Below, one piece after another: positions 8,671 through 64,000 of a stretch of 64,000 nucleotides of DNA. Below the pieces are notes generated by a model. The model did no database searches. It worked only from the letters and a program-made list of their open reading frames with translations, and was not told where the DNA came from. Numbering within the stretch: the first letter of the stretch is position 1; each line of letters starts with the position of its first letter. A program made the position numbers and the translations under genes. Origin of the DNA: Thermococcus sp. (lineage in GTDB: Archaea > Methanobacteriota_B > Thermococci > Thermococcales > Thermococcaceae). The stretch spans positions 7,604 to 71,603 of the forward strand of contig NZ_JAMOQU010000089.1 of NCBI RefSeq assembly GCF_027063845.1, in the 5' to 3' direction.

Positions 8671-8697
8671 TCCTTGAAATTGCGGTAGAATAAAGAA

Positions 8698-8990
8698 TCA
8701 CGAACCTTGGTCAAACTTCGCGCTCAGCCTTTGAGAAAGGCTGGCGAAAAGAGCGCCCTTCTCACCAAAGGGCAAAAACAGTCGTGCATTTGCCGAGTGC
8801 AAGTTTGGACAGGGTTTAACACCAAACAAGGCTTTTCAAGCAGTTCCAACTTTGTTATTAGCGTCCGAAGGACGCCGTTTAAAGGATGGAACACTCACCA
8901 AAGAGCACGTGGATAAGAAACCCACTTGGAAATTAATACTTCAAAAAAGCACTTAATCTTCCGCCAGCGCTTGCGAAGCAAGGGCTGTAA
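8698..8990 (-). repeat. tRNA-3'-anchored hairpin-rich repeat unit (copy A)
   Basis: A unit of about 290 bp that ends exactly at the CCA end of tRNA-Thr(GGU). Long identical runs are shared with 38886-39185. Hairpins: CAGCCTTTgagaAAGGCTG, GCGTCCgaaGGACGC, and a GCTTGCG.AAGC palindrome. Confidence 0.8.
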
Positions 8991-19218: not shown

Positions 19219-20241
19219 ATGGCCCACGTAGCCGAGTGGAAGAAGAAGGAAGTTGAGGAACTCACCAAGATTATCAAGAGCCACCCAGTGATTGCCCTCG
19301 TTGACGTGGCCGGTGTCCCCGCTTACCCGCTCAGCAAGATGCGTGACAAGCTCCGCGGGAAGGCCCTTCTCAGGGTCAGCAGGAACACCCTCATCGAACT
19401 GGCCATAAAGAGGGCCGCCCAGGAGCTCAACAAGCCTGACCTCGAAAAGCTCGCCGACTACATCGAGGGAGGAGCGGCGATACTCGCCACCGAGATGAAC
19501 CCCTTCAAGCTCTACAAGCTCCTCGAGGAGAGCAAGACCCCTGCCCCGGCCAAGCCAGGAGCGGTCGTTCCCAAGGACGTCGTCATTCCAGCCGGACCGA
19601 CCTCGATTCCACCGGGCCCGCTCGTCGGTGAGATGCAGGCCCTTGGAATCCCGGCGAGGATTGAGAAGGGTAAGGTTAGCATTCAGAAGGACTACACCGT
19701 CCTCAAGGCGGGAGAGGTTATAACCGAACAGCTCGCGAGAATCCTCAACGCCCTCGGTATCGAGCCCCTCGAGGTCGGTCTCAACCTGCTCGCCGCTTAC
19801 GAAGACGGCATCGTCTACACTCCTGATGTCCTCGCGATAGACGAGCAGGAGTACATCAACATGCTCCAGCAGGCCTACATGCACGCATTCAACCTGTCAG
19901 TTAACACCGCCTATCCGACCAAGCAGACCATCGAAGCCATCATCCAGAAGGCCTACCTTGGTGCCAAGAACGTTGCAGTCGAAGCTGGCTACATCACGCC
20001 TGAGACCATCGAGGACATCTTTGGCAGGGCCCTTCGTGCCGTCCTGCTCATAGCGCAGAACCTGCCCGAGGAGTTGCTTGACGAGAAGACCAAAGAGCTT
20101 TTAAACGCTCAGGCCCAAGTGGCCGTTGCCGCGGCTCCTCAGCCAACCGAGGAGAAGGTTGAGGAGGCCGAGGAAGAAGAGGAAGAAGAGGAGGCATCCG
20201 AGGAGGATGCGCTCGCCGGACTGGGCGCCCTCTTCGGCTGA
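19219..20241 (+). CDS. rplP0: 50S ribosomal protein L10/P0 (uL10)
   Basis: P0 N-domain, with acidic tail [21 protein letters not shown] shared with P1. Confidence 0.95.
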
Positions 20242-20300
20242 ATTACTTTCCCTCGCACACGTGTGAATAAAGGAATGAAGATGATTGGAGGTGTGAAAAG

Positions 20301-20621
20301 ATGGAGTACGTGTATGCCGCTCTGCTGCTCCACGCCGCTGGTAAGGAGATAAACGAGGAGAACCTCAAGGCCGTCCTTGAGGCCGCTGGAGTCACTCCGG
20401 ATGAGGCCAGGATAAAGGCTCTCGTTGCAGCGCTCGAGGGCGTCAACATCGACGAGGTCATCGAGAAGGCCGCCATGCCTGTCGCCGCTCCGGTCGCTGT
20501 CGCCGCCGCTCCGGCTCCCGCCGAGGGCGGTGCCGAGCAGGCTCAGGAGGAGGAAGAGGAGGAAGAGGAAGAGGTCAGCGAGGAGGAGGCCCTCGCTGGT
20601 CTCGGCGCCCTCTTCGGCTGA
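20301..20621 (+). CDS. rpl12: 50S ribosomal stalk protein P1 (L12)
   Basis: [22 protein letters not shown]..., Ala/Pro hinge, and C-terminal [12 protein letters not shown]. Confidence 0.95.
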
Positions 20622-20639
20622 ACTCCTCTTCTCTTTTGT

Positions 20640-21099: not shown

Positions 21100-21190
21100 C
21101 CCTCTTCCCCAATTAACATTGGCCGAGGTAACCTAAAAGGTTTTCGTAAACCGCAAGGTTTATGTTTAGCCCATCGGAACCATCAGGGGT

Positions 21191-21268
21191 GGGCCGGTGG
21201 CCTAGCCTGGACGGGGCGTCGGCCTTCGGAGCCGAAGGTCGCGGGTTCGAATCCCGCCCGGCCCGCCA
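21191..21268 (+). tRNA. tRNA-Arg (anticodon UCG), CCA encoded
   Basis: Acceptor GGGCCGG/CCGGCCC, anticodon stem-loop TCGGC-CTTCGGA-GCCGA, T-arm GCGGG-TTCGAAT-CCCGC. Confidence 0.9.
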
Positions 21269-22085
21269 TTGAAACTTTGCCTTCGCAAAGTTTCATCAAA
21301 GTTTGTAGCTCTTTCTGGAAGGATATATTTCAAGAGATTTTCCATTTAATTGGCCGTATTGGGTAAAAGAACTTTTTAAATTGCCCCTTTTGGAAGGGTT
21401 TACCTTTAAATCGATGCCCGAAGGGCGTCAAGAAGAGAGTAAACCCCTTTGTAGGGTGCTGTTTTTGTGTTCTCCATTTGAAAAGAGCAATTTCGTGAGT
21501 AAAATCGATTTTATGGGGGTCTTTGGCGAGGAGCTACTAACTTTTGGTGAAGCTTTTGAAAAAAGCTTCCTTCGCAAGCGCTGGCGGAAGAGTAAGTGCT
21601 TTTCTAAGGATTAGCAAGTTTTGAGATGGGTTTACTCAACTTGCCCCTTGATTAGTGTTTCACTCTAAGAAGGCGTCCTTCGGACGCCGATGATAAGTTG
21701 AAACTACGCAGGAGCTTCATTTAGTTTTTAAACCCCTAGTCAATGTTGCACTTTTGGTGCACGACTGGCCTTTTGCTCGTTAGAGAGAAGGGCCTCATAT
21801 CGCCAGCCTTTCCCAAAGGCTGTTGCAAAGTTTCATCAAAGCCGGCATGCCTTTTGAATGGTTCGTTCTCAGGGGTTTACTTCCAAACTCGCCAGTTTTA
21901 AGCGTGTTTCCTCCATTAGCACCCGAAGGGCGCTGTTTAAAACTAAACACTTTCCTCCACACGCCATCATGAGCGTAAACCCCGAATCCATCGACTGTTT
22001 GATAACGCATGCAACTTTTCTTTTACCCTTTCGGACAGTTAAACCATTTTGGTCAAGCTTTGCGCAAGCAAAGCTTGCTGGCCTC
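21269..22085 (+). repeat. array of about three diverged tRNA-anchored hairpin-rich repeat units
   Basis: It starts at the base after the CCA of tRNA-Arg. Approximate units: 21269-21560, 21560-21845, 21845-22085. The middle unit aligns along its length with the reverse complement of 8698-8990 and 38886-39185. Motifs: GCAAAGTTTCATCAAAG (21286, 21825), CGCCAGCCTTTCCCAAAGGCTG (21801), TTCGCAAGCGCTGGCGGAAG (21571), GGCGTCCttcGGACGCC (21672). Confidence 0.75.
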
Positions 22086-22185
22086 AGGAGTGGTGGCCCT
22101 CCGCACCCCTCGGTGCCGGGCCAACCGCTCATCATCGGCCGGATTATTTTTATACCACCGCCTTAAATCCCCAGCGGTGGTTGGT

Positions 22186-22665
22186 ATGATGCTCCCAGAT
22201 TGGAAGATAAGAAAGGAGATTTTAATCGAGCCCTTCTCTGAGGAGTCCCTGCAACCTGCTGGCTACGACCTTCGCGTTGGCGATGAGGCTTACCTCAACG
22301 GTGAAATCCTGAACGTTAAAGAGCTCGGAACCTTCGTGATTCCCCCTAAAACGTACGCTCTCGTTTTGACCCTTGAGAGAATCAAGCTTCCTGACGACGT
22401 TATGGGCGATATGAAGCTGAGAAGCAGTCTCGCGAGGGAAGGAGTGATTGGGTCTTTCGCCTGGGTTGACCCGGGCTGGGACGGGAAGCTGACCCTCGGC
22501 ATCTACAACGCCTCTGAGGAGCCTGTTGAGCTCTCCTACGGGGAGAGGTTCGTTCAGATTGCCTTCATCCGCTTGGAAGGGCCTGCAAAGAAGCCGTACC
22601 GCGGAAAGTATCAAGGAAGCGCTGGAATCGCGCTCTCAAAGCGCAGAACCAGGGAACTTAAGTGA
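22186..22665 (+). CDS. dcd: dCTP deaminase family protein
   Basis: MMLPDWKIRKEI..QPAGYDLRVG..WVDPGWDGKLTLGIYN is typical of the dCTP deaminase/dUTPase fold. TATA ATTATTTTTATA at 22143-22154. The track ORF start at 22009 lies inside the repeat array and was rejected. Confidence 0.85.
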   Translation: MMLPDWKIRKEILIEPFSEESLQPAGYDLRVGDEAYLNGEILNVKELGTFVIPPKTYALVLTLERIKLPDDVMGDMKLRSSLAREGVIGSFAWVDPGWDGKLTLGIYNASEEPVELSYGERFVQIAFIRLEGPAKKPYRGKYQGSAGIALSKRRTRELK

Positions 22666-36873: not shown

Positions 36874-37509
36874 TTGGGGGTGACGGGCTTGGGGATATTC
36901 ATTGTGCTCGAGGGCATAGACGGCGCTGGAAAATCAACTCAGGCAAAGCTACTCAAGCTGTGGCTTGAGGAGAGGGGCTATGAAGTCGTTCTAACAAAGG
37001 AACCCACGGACACACCGTTCGGAAAGCTCATCAGGAAACTGGTCTTGACGGGTGGAAGGGAAGGAATCATTGACGGGGCTAAAATAAGTCACGAGGCGGA
37101 GGCTCTGCTCTTCGCGGCGGACAGGGCCGAACACGTTGACAAGCTTATAAAACCCGCGCTCGAATCGGGAAAGGTTGTGATTTCGGACCGCTACTTTTAC
37201 TCGTCGCTCGCCTATCAGTGGGCGAGGGGACTTGACCTTGAGTGGCTGATAGACCTCAACCGCTTTGCAATAAGGCCCGACCTCGTTCTGCTTCTCGACC
37301 TTCCTGTCAAGGAGAGTATGAAACGCATAAGAACGAGGAGCATAAAGACCGAGTTCGACAAAATAGTGGAGCTCCAGAAAAAGGTTCGCGAAAACTACCT
37401 CAAGCTCGCGGAGCGCTTTCCTGAGATTAAAATCGTCAACGCACTGGAGGACGTTGAAGGGGTTCACAAGCAGATTGTTGCACTCGTTGAGGCCCTGCTC
37501 GAGAAATGA
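36874..37509 (+). CDS. tmk: thymidylate kinase
   Basis: [16 protein letters not shown]-loop and DRY motif (ISDRYFYSS). The exact start codon (TTG/GTG) is uncertain. Confidence 0.9.
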
Positions 37510-37510
37510 A

Positions 37511-37587
37511 TGGAGCCCCGGGCGGGATTTGAACCCGCGACCGGCGGATTACAAGTCCGCCGCCCCGCCAGGCTAGGCTACCGGGGC
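37511..37587 (-). tRNA. tRNA-Thr (anticodon UGU), CCA encoded
   Basis: Acceptor GCCCCGG/CCGGGGC, anticodon loop CTTGTAA, T-arm GCGGG-TTCAAAT-CCCGC. Its 3' end lies 2 nt from the tmk stop. Confidence 0.9.
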
Positions 37588-37613
37588 AGGCTCGCTTTAG
37601 GGGACTCCTTTGG

Positions 37614-37625
37614 GAGTTATAAACC
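37614..37625 (-). promoter_or_regulatory. TATA box for tRNA-Thr(UGU)
   Basis: Minus-strand GGTTTATAACTC about 32 nt upstream of the tRNA 5' end. Confidence 0.5.
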
Positions 37626-37644
37626 TTTTCCCCTTTCTAACCGC

Positions 37645-37658
37645 AAAATTTATAAACG
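37645..37658 (+). promoter_or_regulatory. TATA box for the tRNA-Asn/tRNA-Met pair
   Basis: AAAATTTATAAACG about 34 nt upstream of tRNA-Asn. The two tRNAs are 5 nt apart, so they are probably co-transcribed. Confidence 0.5.
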
Positions 37659-37685
37659 TCCCCTGTATCCCCTACATTGGGTCGA

Positions 37686-37761
37686 GCCGCCGTAGCTTAG
37701 TCGGTAGAGCGCCGGACTGTTAATCCGGCGGTCCCCGGTTCGAATCCGGGCGGCGGCGCCA
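37686..37761 (+). tRNA. tRNA-Asn (anticodon GUU), CCA encoded
   Basis: Acceptor GCCGCCG/CGGCGGC, anticodon loop CTGTTAA, T-arm CCCGG-TTCGAAT-CCGGG. Confidence 0.9.
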
Positions 37762-37766
37762 TCAGT

Positions 37767-37844
37767 GGGCCCGTAGCTCAGCCTGGTCAGAGCGCGCGGC
37801 TCATAACCGCGTGGTCGGGGGTTCAAAGCCCCCCGGGCCCACCA
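37767..37844 (+). tRNA. tRNA with CAU anticodon (elongator Met or Ile2), CCA encoded
   Basis: Acceptor GGGCCCG/CGGGCCC, anticodon loop CTCATAA. G1:C72 and the absence of a GGG/CCC anticodon stem argue against an initiator. Met and agmatidine-modified Ile2 cannot be separated by eye. Confidence 0.85.
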
Positions 37845-38663
37845 TAGCAAACTTTTCTGGGGAAAAGTTTGACCAAAAGTGTTTGACTATTCAAAGTGTG
37901 GAGTTTATAGTTCGTGCACGTCAAGGAGTGTCTCTTGTTGGGAGTTTCTTTTTGACTTGCTATTCAGAGAGCGTTTCCTCCCCGAAAGGCGTCCGAAGGA
38001 CGCCGATGATAAGTTGAAACTATTACAAGGCTTGTTTTTAATGCTAAACTCGCGTTAAGTTCTTCAATTTGAAAGTGCACAACTGAGGTTTGCTTGTTTG
38101 GTAGACGAGCGCTTTTCGCCAGCCTTTCCCAAAGGCTGTGGGCAAAGTTTCATCAAAGTTCGTGATTCCTTTTGAAAAAGCCTATTCTTTGAGTGGATTT
38201 CTTTTTGAGTTGCTCTTTTGATGAAATGAATTCCTTTGAAAGCGCCTTTTACAGGGGGTTCAAGTCTTTGCGCTCCTTCGGAGCGCGGTTCAAGTAGAAC
38301 CCGCGTGAAAGAGGGTGTATCTTTAAAAAATTCAATCTTCAAGGGTCAGTTTAGAGTTTAAAATCCCTTTGTAGAGGAGCCTCAAGGAAGAATCACAAGC
38401 TTTTGGTGAAGCTTTTTCCAAAAGCTTCCTGCGCAAGCGCTGGCGGAAGATTAAGCACTTTTTAGAAGTGTAAGTTTCAGAAGGAGCTTCTATTATATCT
38501 CGCCTCCTATTGCGAGGGTTTTTCTCTCTTTGAAGGCACCCGACAGGCGCATTTTTGAATGAAACACTAATCAAAGGAGCGAATAGGGCCCTGCTTGAAA
38601 ACAGGGACACGCCCAAGAAAGGCACATCATTTCCGCCAGCGCTTGCGCAAGCAGGGGCTGATG
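37845..38663. repeat. array of tRNA-anchored hairpin-rich repeat units between convergent tRNA-Met and tRNA-Pro
   Basis: Forward units lie at about 37845-38160 and about 38160-38450. A truncated reverse unit at about 38490-38663 ends at the CCA of tRNA-Pro. Motifs: GGCGTCCgaaGGACGCC (37988), CGCCAGCCTTTCCCAAAGGCTG (38118), GCAAAGTTTCATCAAAG (38142), CTGCGCAAGCGCTGGCGGAAG forward (38429) and its complement (38631). Confidence 0.75.
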
Positions 38664-38741
38664 TGGTGGGGCCGCCGGGATTTGAACCCGGGTCACGGGC
38701 TCCCAAAGCCCGCAGGATGGGCCAAACTACCCTACGGCCCC
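38664..38741 (-). tRNA. tRNA-Pro (anticodon UGG), CCA encoded
   Basis: Acceptor GGGGCCG/CGGCCCC, anticodon stem-loop CGGGC-TTTGGGA-GCCCG, T-arm CCGGG-TTCAAAT-CCCGG. TATA AAAATTTAATAAGG lies about 30 nt upstream (38768-38781). Confidence 0.9.
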
Positions 38742-38885
38742 CTGCGGTAGGTGCATCACGGGTTGCCTTATTAAATTTTTCGCCGCTGAACTGGATGATG
38801 ATTTCACGTCAACAAAGCTAAAAGGAAAGAATGAGAGAGCTTCGAAGGCTGATATAGTGCATTCCAAATAAGGACAAATAAGGAG

Positions 38886-39185
38886 TCGCGAACTTTGATG
38901 AAACTTTGCCCACAGCTTTTGAGAAAGGCTGGCGAAATGAGTACCCTTCTCACCGAAGAGCAAAGGAGTCAATCGTGCACTGTTAGAGTGCAAGTTTAGA
39001 AAGGGTTTAATATCAAACAGGGTTTTTCAAGCAGTTCCAACTTTGTTATTAGCGTCCAAAGGACGCCGTTTAAAGAATGGAACACTCACCAAAGAGCACG
39101 TGAACAAGAAACCCACTTGAAAATGATAAATACTTCAAAAAAGCACTTAATCTTCCGCCAGCGCTTGCGCAAGCAAGGGCTGATG
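38886..39185 (-). repeat. tRNA-3'-anchored hairpin-rich repeat unit (copy D)
   Basis: A unit of about 300 bp ending at the CCA of tRNA-Leu. It is the closest relative of copy A (8698-8990). Confidence 0.8.
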
Positions 39186-39273
39186 TGGTGCGGGGGCGGG
39201 GATTTGAACCCCGGAACCCCTACGGGAGTGGATCTTGAGTCCACCGCCTTTGACCAGGCTCGGCAACCCCCGC
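39186..39273 (-). tRNA. tRNA-Leu (anticodon CAA), long variable arm, CCA encoded
   Basis: Acceptor GCGGGGG/CCCCCGC, anticodon loop CTCAAGA, extra arm CCCGTAGGGG, T-arm CCGGG-TTCAAAT-CCCCG. Confidence 0.9.
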
Positions 39274-39325
39274 GCTCGCGGGACTCCCGAAGAAGTGAAA
39301 AAGGGCTGAGTTTATAAACCTTGCT

Positions 39326-40015
39326 TCAGCGCTCCATCCTCTTGACTCCATCTTTCGTGCCGACGAGGACAAGGTCAGCTATGTCCGCGAAGATTCCGTT
39401 CTCGATGACGCCTGGAATGTTGTTGAGCTCTATCTCAAGGTCGAGCGGGTCCTCTATGCGGTGGAACCTTGCGTCGAGTATGAAGTTGCCGTTGTCCGTA
39501 ACGACGGGCCCGTCCTTCTTCTCGGCCATCCTCAGCTCGGCGGTGGCGTTGAAGACCTCTATCTCCTCCGCGATTGCGCGCCAAGCAACGGGAATCACCT
39601 CGATGGGAACGGGCATTCTCTGACCGAGCCACTCGACGAGCTTGGTCTCGTCAACGAGGACGACGAACATTCCGGCTCTGTACTCGATGATTTTCTCCAT
39701 CGTCAAAGCCGCACCGCGCCCCTTGATGAGGTTCATCTGCGGGTCAACCTCGTCCGCCCCATCAACCGCTATGTCTATCGCGTCAACCTCGTCGAGGCTC
39801 ACCACGGGAACCCCTGCCTCAAGGGCCAAGAGCCTCGCCTGGTATGAGGTGGGGACGCCGTAAACCTCCTCAAGTTCACCGTCCATGATGAGCTTACCAA
39901 GGTAGCGGATGAAGTAGGCGGTTGTGGAGCCGGTACCGAGGCCGACGACCATTTCATCCTCGATTAGCTTTAGGGCCTCCTTGGCGACGGCCTTCTTCAT
40001 TTCCTCAACGTTCAT
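39326..40015 (-). CDS. rpiA: ribose-5-phosphate isomerase A
   Basis: GLGTGSTTAYFI, DGADEVD and KGRGAALTMEK motifs. Confidence 0.93.
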   Translation of the reverse strand: MNVEEMKKAVAKEALKLIEDEMVVGLGTGSTTAYFIRYLGKLIMDGELEEVYGVPTSYQARLLALEAGVPVVSLDEVDAIDIAVDGADEVDPQMNLIKGRGAALTMEKIIEYRAGMFVVLVDETKLVEWLGQRMPVPIEVIPVAWRAIAEEIEVFNATAELRMAEKKDGPVVTDNGNFILDARFHRIEDPLDLEIELNNIPGVIENGIFADIADLVLVGTKDGVKRMER

Positions 40016-45623: not shown

Positions 45624-46220
45624 TCATATCACCTCAGGCTTTCGGTAATCTGCGATATCCCCTACGACCTTTGCATATATAAACCTTTCGGGAAAGGAGG
45701 AAGGAGAGGGCTTAGTTTGCAACAAAAAGTTAGCATCTCAAATTTTCGAAGAAATAAAAAGCGCTCCCGAAATTTTTAGCCAAAAAGAGGGATGTACATC
45801 CAAGATTTTATGAACATTGGTGAACATTGAGGTGCAACGGTGAAGGAAAGAATAGAAACCCTCAGCGAGAAGTCGGTCATCATCCCGTCAGCTCACTCTC
45901 GTTCCAATCATCGGGCGACTCCTTCTTGGGGGTTCTGATTAAAAACTCTTTTGTGAACAATACTTCATGCTTTGTGTCGTCGCATTGCCAGTCCATTTCA
46001 AAAGGTTATTGTCATAATGACTCCAAACTCCGCCACTGAATAGGCATATCTGAAAAAATGACAAAAAAGGATTTCAGGTTATTTTACGACAAAGTAAATC
46101 GTCTTTCGTCGAAATAAAGGCCCAAAAAGCTTTTTAAACAATGATGTCCTTTATACGTAGTGCCCCGTTAGTGGGCATTCGATCCCAATAAAATACAACC
46201 CTGATTGGAGGTGGTTAAAA

Positions 46221-62134: not shown

Positions 62135-63140
62135 CGAAGACCACCCCGTGTATCTCCCTCAAAGCCGGCACGAGCTCCTCCCTCTCGACCGTTATTGAGA
62201 AGTATCCGTTCCCCTTCACTCCCTTCCAGTCGGGGAGCTCTTCAACACCTACAATTGATATCCTCGCCCTCTCTCCCTCGACCCGGTGGACAATTATCGG
62301 CCAGTCGTCGCCGAAGTCTGACACAAGGGTTCCAAGGCGCCAGTCCTCGGTTCTGCCGAGTATCAGCGGAATACTTCCGAGGGGTTCGATGGTTCTTGGG
62401 TGGAGTGCCTTCATCCCGAGCTTCGCCGCCAAAAGGGCCCTCTCGCGCGAGAGGAAGTGTATCAGCCTGGCTTCCGGAACGAGCCTCGGGTCGGCGGTGT
62501 ATATCCCCTTCACGTCGCTCATTATGAGAACGCCCTTCGCATCGAGCATCGCCCCCAAAGCCGAGGCTGTGTAATCGCTACCGCCCCTGCCGAGGGTTGC
62601 CGTTTTTCCGTTGAGGTTTCCTATGAAGCCTGTAACTACTGGAACCGCTTTTTCTGCCAGCTCTCCGAGTTTCCGAACGCGGGGCAGGCTGGCTGAAAAG
62701 TCTATTTCCGCGTTCCCAAAGCTCCCGCGAAGGGTTAGGATTTCCCTCGCGTCCACGGGAATCGCCGGGATTCCTTCGTTTTCAAGAGCTTTTGCGAACA
62801 GCACTGCGGAGAGCCTCTCCCCGAAGGAGAGGATGTAGTCCCTCCACTCAGGGTCGTAACGGCGCCTTGCAACGGCTTTTTCGAGCTCGCTGAGAAGGGG
62901 CTCTATATCCGCACCGAGCCTGTTCGCTATCTTGTAGTGCTCGAGTGCTATGCTCTCAAAGGTTCTCCAGTCTGGCCACTCCGAGAGCTTCACAAGCTTC
63001 TCCGTGACACCCCTGAGGGCAGAAACGACGACAACTACCCTGCTTCCCTCGAGGAGGTAGTCAACTAACTTCAGTGCGCTCCAGAACGAGCCCTTCACCG
63101 AGCTTCCTCCGAACTTGACGACGGAGAGTTTCTCGACCAC
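62085..63140 (-). CDS. aspartate kinase (short form, single ACT-like tail)
   Basis: VVKFGGSSV and TLGRGGSDYTASALGA motifs. GTG 63140 lies about 35 nt downstream of TATA TTCATTAAAAGG. The 3' end overlaps thrB by 50 nt. Confidence 0.8.
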   Translation of the reverse strand: MVEKLSVVKFGGSSVKGSFWSALKLVDYLLEGSRVVVVVSALRGVTEKLVKLSEWPDWRTFESIALEHYKIANRLGADIEPLLSELEKAVARRRYDPEWRDYILSFGERLSAVLFAKALENEGIPAIPVDAREILTLRGSFGNAEIDFSASLPRVRKLGELAEKAVPVVTGFIGNLNGKTATLGRGGSDYTASALGAMLDAKGVLIMSDVKGIYTADPRLVPEARLIHFLSRERALLAAKLGMKALHPRTIEPLGSIPLILGRTEDWRLGTLVSDFGDDWPIIVHRVEGERARISIVGVEELPDWKGVKGNGYFSITVEREELVPALREIHGVVFDEGSRSRYHSKLWARV

Positions 63141-63260: not shown

Positions 63261-64000
63261 TTATATCACCACTTGAACAGTTGACAGGGCCCTTGAGAAC
63301 ATTATCCTTCTTCCTATGACCTCCCAGTGAATCGCGTTCAAAGCGCTCCCGAGACGGGAAAGCGGAACGCGAACTGACACCCAAGGAATTCCCTTTTCCT
63401 CGTGCCTCTCGAAGGGAAAGCTCCCGAGCGAGTCAACTCCCACAACGCTGACTATTCCATCGCTTCCCTCGACACGGTAAGTCACTATGGGTATCCCGGA
63501 GCTCTCATAACCAACGACCGTGCCGATGTGCCAGTCTCTCGTCCTGCCGAGGTGTATTGGCCCCGCCACTTCAGCCGCCTTGGGATGTAGCACCTTCATT
63601 CCGAGCCTCGCGGCCACGTAGGCCTCCCCAAAGGAAACAAAAGGTATGAGCCTCGCCCCTAATACTTTCCTTGGGTCCGCGGTGTAAATCCCCTCAACAT
63701 CACTCATTATGATGACACCGCTCGCCCCGATTAGACTTCCGAGGGCCGAGGCCGTGTAATCGCTACCACCCCTGCCGAGGGTCGTTCTGAAACCGCTGTA
63801 ACCGCCAACGAAGCCAGGAACTACCGGCACAAGGCCTTCCTCAAGGGCTTCCTCGACCGGCTTCACGGTTTTCCTGCTCGCCCTGAGGTCTATTTCCGCG
63901 TTACCGAAACGCCCGTCCGTCATCAGGATTTCCCACGGCTCGAAAAGCACGGCTGGAATGCCCCTCCTCCTCAGGGCCTCGGTGAATATTATCCCTGAGA
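63261..64000 (-). CDS. second aspartate kinase paralog (5' end outside the window)
   Basis: The frame is open to the window edge. TLGRGGSDYTASALGS, IIMSDVEGIYTADPR and LHPKA align residue-for-residue with the downstream kinase. Confidence 0.75.
   Translation of the reverse strand, partial: SGIIFTEALRRRGIPAVLFEPWEILMTDGRFGNAEIDLRASRKTVKPVEEALEEGLVPVVPGFVGGYSGFRTTLGRGGSDYTASALGSLIGASGVIIMSDVEGIYTADPRKVLGARLIPFVSFGEAYVAARLGMKVLHPKAAEVAGPIHLGRTRDWHIGTVVGYESSGIPIVTYRVEGSDGIVSVVGVDSLGSFPFERHEEKGIPWVSVRVPLSRLGSALNAIHWEVIGRRIMFSRALSTVQVVI

Follow-up and report, generated by a model that had tools for sequence, protein, structure and literature searches.

Hairpin-Ended Extragenic Cassettes behind tRNA and Small RNA Genes in Thermococcus

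In a 64-kb stretch of Thermococcus DNA (hereafter the window, meaning this whole stretch), the gap that follows tRNA-Arg(TCG) and precedes dcd holds three units, S1, S2, and S3, of a dispersed family of noncoding cassettes that are bracketed by hairpin end modules and begin almost directly behind tRNA and small RNA genes. The family, its architecture, and its position rule emerge from comparison of the window with ~210 kb of related loci. S1, S2, and S3 are old paralogs, each closer to copies elsewhere than to its neighbor, and the third is reversed. Stems are maintained by compensatory change while the unit sequence drifts near-neutrally, units turn over, flip, and are exchanged between close relatives, and the arrays coincide with synteny breakpoints. 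The best explanation that we can offer, with about an even chance of being correct, is that the gap consists of three members of a lineage-specific set of dispersed, quasi-palindromic extragenic cassettes at transcript 3′ ends, resembling the repetitive extragenic palindromic (REP) elements and bacterial interspersed mosaic elements (BIMEs) of bacteria.

Three Units but No Tandem Array

A first-pass annotation had read the gap as about three diverged tandem repeat units filling the noncoding space from tRNA-Arg to the dcd promoter. The noncoding character of the ~810 nt is borne out: there is no conserved open reading frame (ORF), only short overlapping mechanical ORFs, and gene calls are empty in 10 orthologous loci; the orthologs of the gap differ from one another by frameshifting indels. 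The units do not extend to the dcd promoter (TATA box at ~22147; dcd start at 22186). A minus-strand gene for a C/D box small RNA (sRNA) of the sR47 family (Rfam RF01131), overlooked in the first-pass annotation, intervenes, scoring 42.8 bits against a gathering score of 40 and being 100% identical in Thermococcus nautili, and because it occupies 22082–22139, the repeat region proper is 21269–22081. The sR47 match falls under the Rfam gathering score in four of the related loci (L123, L131, L156, and L158).

For pairwise comparison, the gap was cut into S1 (21269–21569), S2 (21570–21824), and S3 (21825–22081). Self-alignment, the check on internal periodicity that the first-pass annotation itself had proposed, found none that was significant, and the tandem-repeat reading therefore fails: Tandem Repeats Finder (TRF) reported no array in the gap, even at a score of 30, the sole self-BLAST match was a 17-mer, GCAAAGTTTCATCAAAG, present at 21285 and 21825 as the first-pass annotation had noticed, and local alignments of S1 with S2 and of S2 with S3 were no better than dinucleotide shuffles (z < 1). 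Each unit instead has its nearest relative at another locus. The middle segment, said earlier to match the reverse complement of two other copies, does so: 21566–21841 aligns by BLAST with the reverse complement of 8707–8982 (72%, E 9e-31) and of 38893–39177 (73%, E 2e-32), and S2 also matches 37986–38176 on the plus strand. Alignment of S2 with the copies behind tRNA-Thr and tRNA-Leu (A1 and A2) reached z > 50, and that of S1 with 38142–38462 (B2), with which it is colinear (repeat families D5 and D16), reached z 9.6.

More sensitive models did find S1 and S3 to be members of the same family. A sequence profile built from seven clear A-type units matched the S1 body on the plus strand (nhmmer, 14.7 bits) and the S3 body on the minus strand only (19.5 bits, with no plus-strand match); in neither case was any of 1,000 shuffles as good. 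A covariance model, R1, describing the 117-nt central domain of ten A units as three helices nested in one another, with a G+C-rich apical hairpin closing them, was run on the whole window with filters off. It recovered four training copies at 95–120 bits, among them the S2 domain (21624–21738, plus strand) at 100 bits, and scored the flanking units at 47.1 bits (21364–21476, plus strand, E 6e-9) and at 40.2 bits on the minus and 40.0 bits on the plus strand (21870–21986). It also scored 38223–38337 at 26.4 bits and gave no convincing score in the 64-kb window outside three tRNA-associated arrays. Because profile and model both match S1 and S3, the gap does contain three related, hairpin-keeping units of ~250–300 nt, their central domains spaced at 245–260 nt, and what has to be given up of the earlier description is the tandem arrangement, the periodicity existing at the profile level only. 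The flanking segments, described earlier as degenerate repeats of the middle one, each carry one full-length central domain, with the reservation that the third matches the sequence profile on the minus strand alone.

From tRNA-Arg onward, the array runs T1 (plus), S1, T1 (minus); T2′ (plus), S2, T2-like (minus); a T1 core (plus); the S3 body on the minus strand; T1 (minus); and sR47 (minus), where T1 and T2 are the two types of end module. Two cassettes thus trail tRNA-Arg on the plus strand, and one, in the orientation of sR47 and on the strand opposite to S1 and S2, trails sR47 (Table 1). Amplification in place, by which one ancestral unit gave rise to three head-to-tail copies that then diverged, would fit the regular spacing of the three domains and the shared strand of S1 and S2, but it is hardly credible when neighbors resemble one another no more than by chance and TRF finds nothing, when each unit has a closer relative at another locus, and when S3 is inverted. 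The order of a B-type followed by an A-type unit is moreover repeated at 38142–38470 and behind a T. nautili tRNA-Leu (PMC5495485, supplement), and because it recurs it belongs to the family and is not peculiar to this locus. A better reading is that cassettes which had already diverged were brought side by side by recombination. At the same locus in relatives, units have been lost, turned around, or swapped, and the orphan end modules at the joints look like leftovers of earlier recombination.

End Modules and Position behind RNA Genes

Family units are ~250–320 nt long, and eight to nine copies lie within the 64 kb. A1 and A2 are 86% identical over 306 nt and are closer to each other than to the metagenome-contig copy that trails tRNA-Leu(CAA) (75%). 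Two end modules, inverted relative to each other, enclose every unit, and each consists of a perfect 9–11-bp hairpin with a purine-rich 7-mer on its inner side. The T1 type reads GAAACTTTGC-loop-GCAAAGTTTC followed by ATCAAAG, and the T2 type CAGCCCTTGC-loop-GCAAGCGCTG followed by GCGGAAG. The hairpins named in the first-pass annotation are all present in the sequence, and two of its modules are end modules on the opposite strand, the one beginning TTTTGGTGAAGCTTT being T1 and CGCCAGCCTTTCCCAAAGGCTG being T2-like. The T1 core, AAGYTTSAYCAARR, has 9 matches in the window against 0.66 expected, and all 9 lie inside the three tRNA-associated arrays, within which T modules of both strands alternate.

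End modules begin 0–6 nt past tRNA or sRNA 3′ ends. In the window, a module starts 2–3 nt past the CCA of tRNA-Arg, tRNA-Met, tRNA-Thr(GGT), tRNA-Pro, and tRNA-Leu, so that five of the six tRNA transcription units are followed by one, and a further module starts 2 nt past sR47; the sixth unit, tRNA-Thr(TGT), adjoins a convergent ORF and has none. Most tRNAs in the related loci are likewise trailed by an end module. In Thermococcus profundus, tRNA-Leu(CAG) and tRNA-Val converge across 313 nt containing one domain (one unit), and in Thermococcus peptonophilus tRNA-Leu(TAG) and tRNA-Pro converge across 591 nt containing two. Alignments of orthologous loci resume at ~22046–22048, at the T1 module beside sR47.

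The family is present at loci of T. nautili, T. peptonophilus, T. profundus, Thermococcus onnurineus, and Thermococcus sp. 4557. In a 596-Gb genome collection, the 16-nt pattern GCAAGCGCTGGCGGAA proved too short, giving ~120 chance bacterial matches together with one Thermococcus metagenome-assembled genome (MAG; L087). A longer pattern, for the start of A units (the T2 module), matched five metagenome contigs only and had no match in viral contigs. We found no earlier description of the family in the literature on MITEs (miniature inverted-repeat transposable elements), REPs, and Thermococcus tRNA-flank repeats, or by its motif strings.

Table 1. Coordinates of the units, end modules, and adjoining RNA genes in the window
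Feature	Position	Strand	Evidence and remarks
tRNA-Arg(TCG)	21191..21268	+	ARAGORN; Rfam tRNA 62 bits; gene trailed by the first two units
T1 end module, GAAACTTTGC-cttc-GCAAAGTTTC + ATCAAAG, 2 nt past CCA	21271..21301	+	Sequence; compensatory stem changes in related loci
S1 body (B type), central three-helix domain 21364–21476	21302..21541	+	R1 47.1 bits, E 6e-9; nhmmer 14.7 bits, 0/1000 shuffles; colinear with 38142–38462
Orphan T1 module, GAAGCTTTT-ttc-AAAAGCTTC + ACCAAAA, closing S1	21542..21569	-	Core motif AAGYTTSAYCAARR; hairpin fold
S2, A-type cassette, central domain 21624–21738	21566..21841	+	BLAST E 1e-30 to 1e-32; nhmmer 264 bits; R1 100 bits
Parts of S2: T2 half-module (CGCAAGCGCTG + GCGGAAG); distal hairpin CAGCCTTTcccAAAGGCTG at 21804–21822; T1 core at 21825–21841			
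S3 body, central domain 21870–21986	21842..22046	- (best read)	nhmmer 19.5 bits, minus only, 0/1000 shuffles; R1 40.2 bits minus, 40.0 plus
T1 module, CAAGCTTTGC-ttgc-GCAAAGCTTG + ACCAAAA, 2 nt past sR47 3′ end	22047..22079	-	Core motif, fold; kept beside sR47 in all orthologous loci
C/D box sRNA sR47	22082..22139	-	Rfam RF01131, 42.8 bits
A1, A-type cassette directly behind tRNA-Thr(GGT)	8679..8990	-	nhmmer 309 bits; R1 118 bits
A4, behind tRNA-Met: T1 start module, A-type body and end	37845..38177	+	nhmmer 233 bits; R1 95 bits
B2, B-type unit, S1 paralog, then T2 half-module as at 21570	38142..38462	+	Families D5/D16; R1 26.4 bits; z 9.6 vs. S1
Degenerate cassette trailing tRNA-Pro(TGG); the tRNA is followed at once by a T2 module	38388..38663	-	nhmmer E 9e-14
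A2, A-type cassette directly behind tRNA-Leu(CAA)	38867..39185	-	nhmmer, R1; 86% identical to A1

Pairing Is Maintained while the Sequence Drifts

Among 35 distinct T1 hairpins from the window and its relatives, full Watson-Crick swaps occur at five stem positions (for example, GC/TA at 13 vs. 21 and AT/GC at 20 vs. 15), 16 different loops are found, and the stems contain almost no mismatches and almost no G-U pairs. In the A units, RNAalifold gives an 88-pair consensus in which 83% of cells are paired, compared with 33–51% in slid controls, and 26 pairs carry double changes against 15.1 ± 2.6 in shuffles (0/500). In 22 distinct central domains from other genomes, 82% of cells are Watson-Crick paired, and two or more Watson-Crick types occur at 15 of the 23 pairs, compared with 1–5 in slid controls, in an alignment that had been fitted to the model and so favors that structure. 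RNAalifold on an unfitted MAFFT alignment of 27 diverged central domains recovered the apical hairpin only; by eye, the two outer helices appear to covary between unit types in the same alignment, with outer stem variants GGGTTT/AAACCC, GAGAAC/GTTCTC, and GGAATTT/AAATTCC and inner stem variants GTTTCA/TGAAAC or GGGTTTAC/GTAAACCC. The folding energy has a z-score of −3.9 in A2 and −4.9 in the gap as a whole. Structure statistics such as these, drawn from paralogs and close orthologs, overstate how independent the sequences are, and an unbranched or palindromic fold exists equally in DNA and on both strands. Binding sites for protein, of the Thermococcales glycolytic motif (TGM), SurR, or origin recognition box (ORB)-like kinds, were dropped by eye, the stems covarying instead of conserving sequence.

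The primary sequence of the units drifts at about the synonymous rate. Unit bodies compared with T. nautili are 78% (S1) and 85.5% (S3) identical, with indels, against 85.5% overall and 80.6% in dcd for third codon positions of neighboring genes, whereas the tRNA, sR47, and the dcd promoter are 99–100% identical.

Conserved helices with compensatory changes, long-range ones included, are also what would be expected if each unit were a gene for, or part of, a structured noncoding RNA that is cotranscribed with the tRNA, freed by tRNA 3′ processing, and protected by its hairpins. The units do stand directly behind tRNAs and in tRNA orientation, and the tRNA-sense strand folds better than the antisense in seven of seven units at 37 °C, with 71 G-U pairs against 31, although such a strand test (G-U vs. 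A-C counts, sense vs. antisense energies) is weak and partly circular and is not proof of RNA. Transcript evidence was found in one place and is indirect: differential RNA sequencing of T. onnurineus NA1 placed the primary 5′ end of a transcript of modest abundance, TON_nc006, at 159404 on the minus strand (PMC5316973, supplement), which is inside the orthologous spacer between tRNA-Arg (158981–159056) and dcd (159674). This start corresponds to ~2731 (minus strand) of locus L156, with a TATA-like sequence, ATATAATAG, ~20 nt upstream.

We nevertheless think a structured RNA quite unlikely. TON_nc006 runs on the strand opposite to the tRNA, the window does not conserve its TATA-like box, and the units contain no conserved promoter. 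No Rfam family was found at E ≤ 10 in 21150–22200 or 37400–39400 beyond tRNAs and sR47, and the units contain no tRNA-like pseudogenes by Rfam at gathering or E ≤ 10 thresholds. The unit bodies have 39–47% G+C, whereas hyperthermophile structural RNAs are rich in G+C (66–70% for rRNA and tRNA in Pyrococcus abyssi, PMC3124441), only −8 to −14 kcal/mol is predicted for them at 85 °C, and they drift at the synonymous rate while the adjoining sR47 and tRNA are conserved. The T1 stems use almost no G-U pairs, and the T6 runs that follow the T2 modules of A1 and A2 would stop read-through from the tRNA.

Turnover at Orthologous Loci

Ten loci from different genomes were gathered through the exact histone protein encoded beside dcd. 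T. nautili and two relatives keep S1 and S3 at 88–92% identity and have, in place of the A unit, 53 nt that include AAACCCCC together with a G+C-rich hairpin; L125 retains nothing of the A unit but GCGCTGGCGG. In L122 and L131, units face the other way or have given way to another type of unit.

Such variation would also fit mobile DNA, and the units could be nonautonomous elements (MITE-, foldback-, or REPIN-like) whose hairpin inverted termini are recognized by a transposase encoded elsewhere, with a preference for inserting right after the 3′ ends of tRNA or other genes or beside one another, so that the array would be a pile-up of insertions. Inverted terminal modules, small size, lack of coding capacity, and several copies per 64 kb all describe a MITE, and the units face both ways, differ in presence between close relatives, and have bodies that drift near-neutrally. 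T1 variants identical even in the loop are found behind different tRNAs of different species, CAAACTTCGC-ctgc-GCGAAGTTTG, for example, behind T. nautili tRNA-Arg and T. profundus tRNA-Val, and A1 and A2 resemble each other more than they do the metagenome copy behind tRNA-Leu(CAA).

We take insertion seriously and still judge it somewhat unlikely. The joints examined show no target-site duplications, and no direct repeats flank the A unit at 21570/21824. There is no clean empty site either, and the remnants that T. nautili and L125 keep in place of the A unit point to deletion rather than insertion. Copies within the genome are mostly old (~73% identical), no similarity to plasmids, viruses, or viral contigs was found, and the distance from gene end to hairpin hardly varies, at 0–6 nt on both sides of convergent tRNA pairs, which is hard to obtain by insertion. 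No transposase partner was found, though no genome-wide search was made. Known MITEs and foldback elements (Correia- and ERIC-like elements; SM and PATE in archaea) are similarly small, noncoding, and strongly folding back, with inverted termini, several diverged copies, and varying orientation and presence; the present cassettes differ from them in having no target-site duplication, clean empty site, or known parent insertion sequence, in their fixed position behind the upstream gene, and in that the ends themselves are perfect hairpins.

A second mobile source would be plasmids or viruses integrated at tRNA genes (pTN3-, TKV-, or pT26-2-like), of which the units would be decayed ends. The units do adjoin tRNA genes, the kind of gene that Thermococcales integrative elements use as attachment sites (PMC5495485, PMC7253208). 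We regard this origin as very improbable: BLAST finds no duplicated tRNA fragments bounding the units, there are no integrase remnants or ORFs, the whole gap has no blastn similarity to 72,556 plasmids or 50,697 phage and virus records, the start pattern of A units is absent from viral contigs, and pTN3 uses the 5′ part of tRNA-Leu (nt 2–44), not the 3′ flank.

Arrays at Synteny Breakpoints and Published Inversions

In L123 and L129, rpiA and tRNA-Leu(CAA), which in the window lie at 39186–40015 on the minus strand, stand upstream of the array and are thereby joined to dcd. In L152–154, the rpiA–tRNA-Leu pair is joined through an array to gcvP2, a gene that in the window flanks the cassette behind tRNA-Thr. 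It is because the same arrays join different genes in these loci that we describe them as synteny breakpoints. The tRNA-Leu isoacceptor behind rpiA also varies by species, being CAA in the window (39186–39273) and many relatives, TAG in T. peptonophilus, and CAG in T. profundus (coordinates compared: L137, 6753–6840; L144, 6727–6814; and the window), a pattern suggestive of exchange inside, or at, the tRNA-Leu genes.

In Thermococcales, inversions are frequent and scramble the genomes, and their borders are found at tRNA genes (Cossu et al. 2017, PMC5495485). Between T. onnurineus and Thermococcus sp. 4557, the borders are oppositely oriented tRNA pairs, Leu/Thr and Leu/Gly, and in the published model the pTN3 integrase acts on tRNA genes or any paralogous stretch; yet the integrase failed to invert tRNA-Leu against tRNA-Thr in vitro (PMC5495485). 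In the window, the cassettes behind tRNA-Thr(GGT) and tRNA-Leu(CAA) are 86% identical over 306 nt, homology of a kind not present in the two tRNA genes. The paradox that these tRNA genes are too dissimilar to recombine would find a concrete, testable source of homology in a ~300-bp cassette shared by their 3′ flanks.

BD01_1557 and BD01_1976, which both encode tRNA-Gly in T. nautili, share an identical 176-bp segment, made up of the tRNA 3′ half and the sequence just after it, that held the crossover of a laboratory inversion (PMC5495485). The sequence downstream of BD01_1557 (S9 Fig in PMC5495485) consists of a T1 module, CAAACTTCGC-ctgt-GCGAAGTTTG followed by ACCAAGG, and then an S1-type unit, and it aligns colinearly with window positions 21272–21431 (70.6%, E 2e-13) and 21521–21555. 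The published borders and our arrays share several features: they are from the same genus, with T. nautili among our orthologous loci, synteny breaks at oppositely oriented tRNA genes in both, and the tRNA-Gly pair that recombined in culture shares identical downstream sequence; the difference is that the downstream sequences were not described there as a repeat family. As a side effect, the cassettes may supply the dispersed homology for crossovers of Thermococcus chromosomal inversions.

Resemblance to REP Elements and Its Limits

Under the explanation that we prefer, that of REP/BIME-like cassettes, the units would be hairpin-forming DNA or RNA at transcript 3′ ends, kept for its pairing by analogy with the bacterial elements. 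Candidate roles are 3′-end formation, protection, or the insulation of convergent RNA genes that are heavily transcribed, and spread among loci may have occurred by recombination or gene conversion or through some mobilizing enzyme.

REP elements, BIMEs, and REPINs likewise comprise short, perfect or near-perfect extragenic palindromes at 3′ ends and between convergent genes, form clusters of alternating orientation, keep their stems by compensatory change while loops vary, are lineage specific, and serve as rearrangement substrates. The present family differs in being archaeal, in having a 250–310-bp cassette with a 117-nt three-helix core between palindromes where the bacterial elements have a 20–40-nt palindrome or a close doublet, in lacking the GTAG/CGTC tag (the bases before its hairpins vary: TT, TAG, CAG, TC, GTA, CAT, TTA, and others), and in that copies stand almost only behind tRNA and sRNA genes in the data seen.

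Several observations weigh against this explanation. The unit bodies are AT-rich, at 39–47% G+C against 54.5% for the window, the stability predicted for them at 85 °C is weak, and they diverge at about the synonymous rate, a divergence that a mainly selfish or neutral element would explain equally well. The T-run lies 15–25 nt past the hairpin, not directly after it, and the modules are for that reason not classical intrinsic terminators; a consensus scan for such terminators found none at the modules, a scan that included sigma-70 promoters and is uninformative for an archaeon. No mobilizing enzyme, RAYT-like gene, or transposase partner was identified, and no genome-wide search for one was made. 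The family was not found at the T. sibiricus-group loci examined, including behind tRNA-Leu, and cassettes are absent behind some tRNAs within the clade, so that tRNA genes cannot in general depend on them. One T1 module in the T. 5-4 genome text (PMC5495485, supplement) starts at a protein gene's stop codon, implying an association with the 3′ ends of transcription units in general, not with tRNAs alone.

Of the multicopy intergenic sequences described in Thermococcales, sRk48 and sRk52 of P. abyssi also have covarying secondary structure (PMC3124441). They are ~130 nt long, with their own TFB recognition element (BRE)/TATA promoter and an L7Ae-binding K-loop (Phok et al. 2011, PMC3124441), whereas the present family has no conserved promoter; sRk RNAs occur in T. 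sibiricus and Pyrococcus, whereas the T. sibiricus loci that we examined yielded no member of the present family. Identity with sRk48/52 was set aside on these differences of size, promoter, K-loop, and host range.

More tentatively, the family is possibly a hitherto unrecognized archaeal counterpart of REP, BIME, and REPIN elements, in which a hairpin-ended palindromic cassette either targets or is kept at the 3′ ends of tRNA and small RNA genes in one Thermococcus clade and is the real dispersed homology for rapid chromosomal inversions. If so, it would explain breakpoints at pairs of different tRNAs (tRNA-Leu/tRNA-Thr) that the pTN3 integrase could not recombine from the tRNA genes alone. 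In either case the family is a sizeable unannotated feature, with relevance to how archaeal stable-RNA transcripts end; if the cassettes are neutral debris, they remain useful for annotation and for marking rearrangement hot spots, but for nothing beyond that.

Additional Observations

The window is the same as a contig of the uncultured Thermococcus MAG GCA_027063285.1, and its dcd is 90% identical to that of Thermococcus henrietii. At 38430–38469, an orphan T2 half-module with TAAGCACTTTTT faces the degenerate cassette behind tRNA-Pro; its partner arm, at 39132–39171, is 93% complementary and 662 nt away, and recombination between the arms would invert tRNA-Pro together with its promoter. 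Another C/D box sRNA, sR58 (45860–45915, minus strand, 77.9 bits), is preceded by ~300 nt of AT-rich noncoding DNA and is followed by no T module. In L136, an A-type cassette comes directly after a 137-nt Rfam tRNA match (96–232) that ARAGORN missed, presumably an intron-containing tRNA, and in L134 a sequence ending in CACCA stands just ahead of a cassette without a tRNA call. Small G+C-rich hairpins, GTGGGGCTTCGCCCCAC and GGGGGCGTTAGCCCCC, lie beside T modules in T. nautili (L130, 2328–2380) and T. 5-4, one of them standing where the window has its A unit, and may be a second small repeat family.

Two further repeats were seen in the window. Positions 62398–62597 and 63583–63782 form a 200-nt direct repeat (70% identity, 1185 nt apart) in two adjacent minus-strand ORFs, which are probably tandem paralogous genes. 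An 83-nt repeat at 20165–20247 and 20545–20627 (81% identity) corresponds, as expected, to the acidic C-terminal tails of the stalk proteins P0 and L12.

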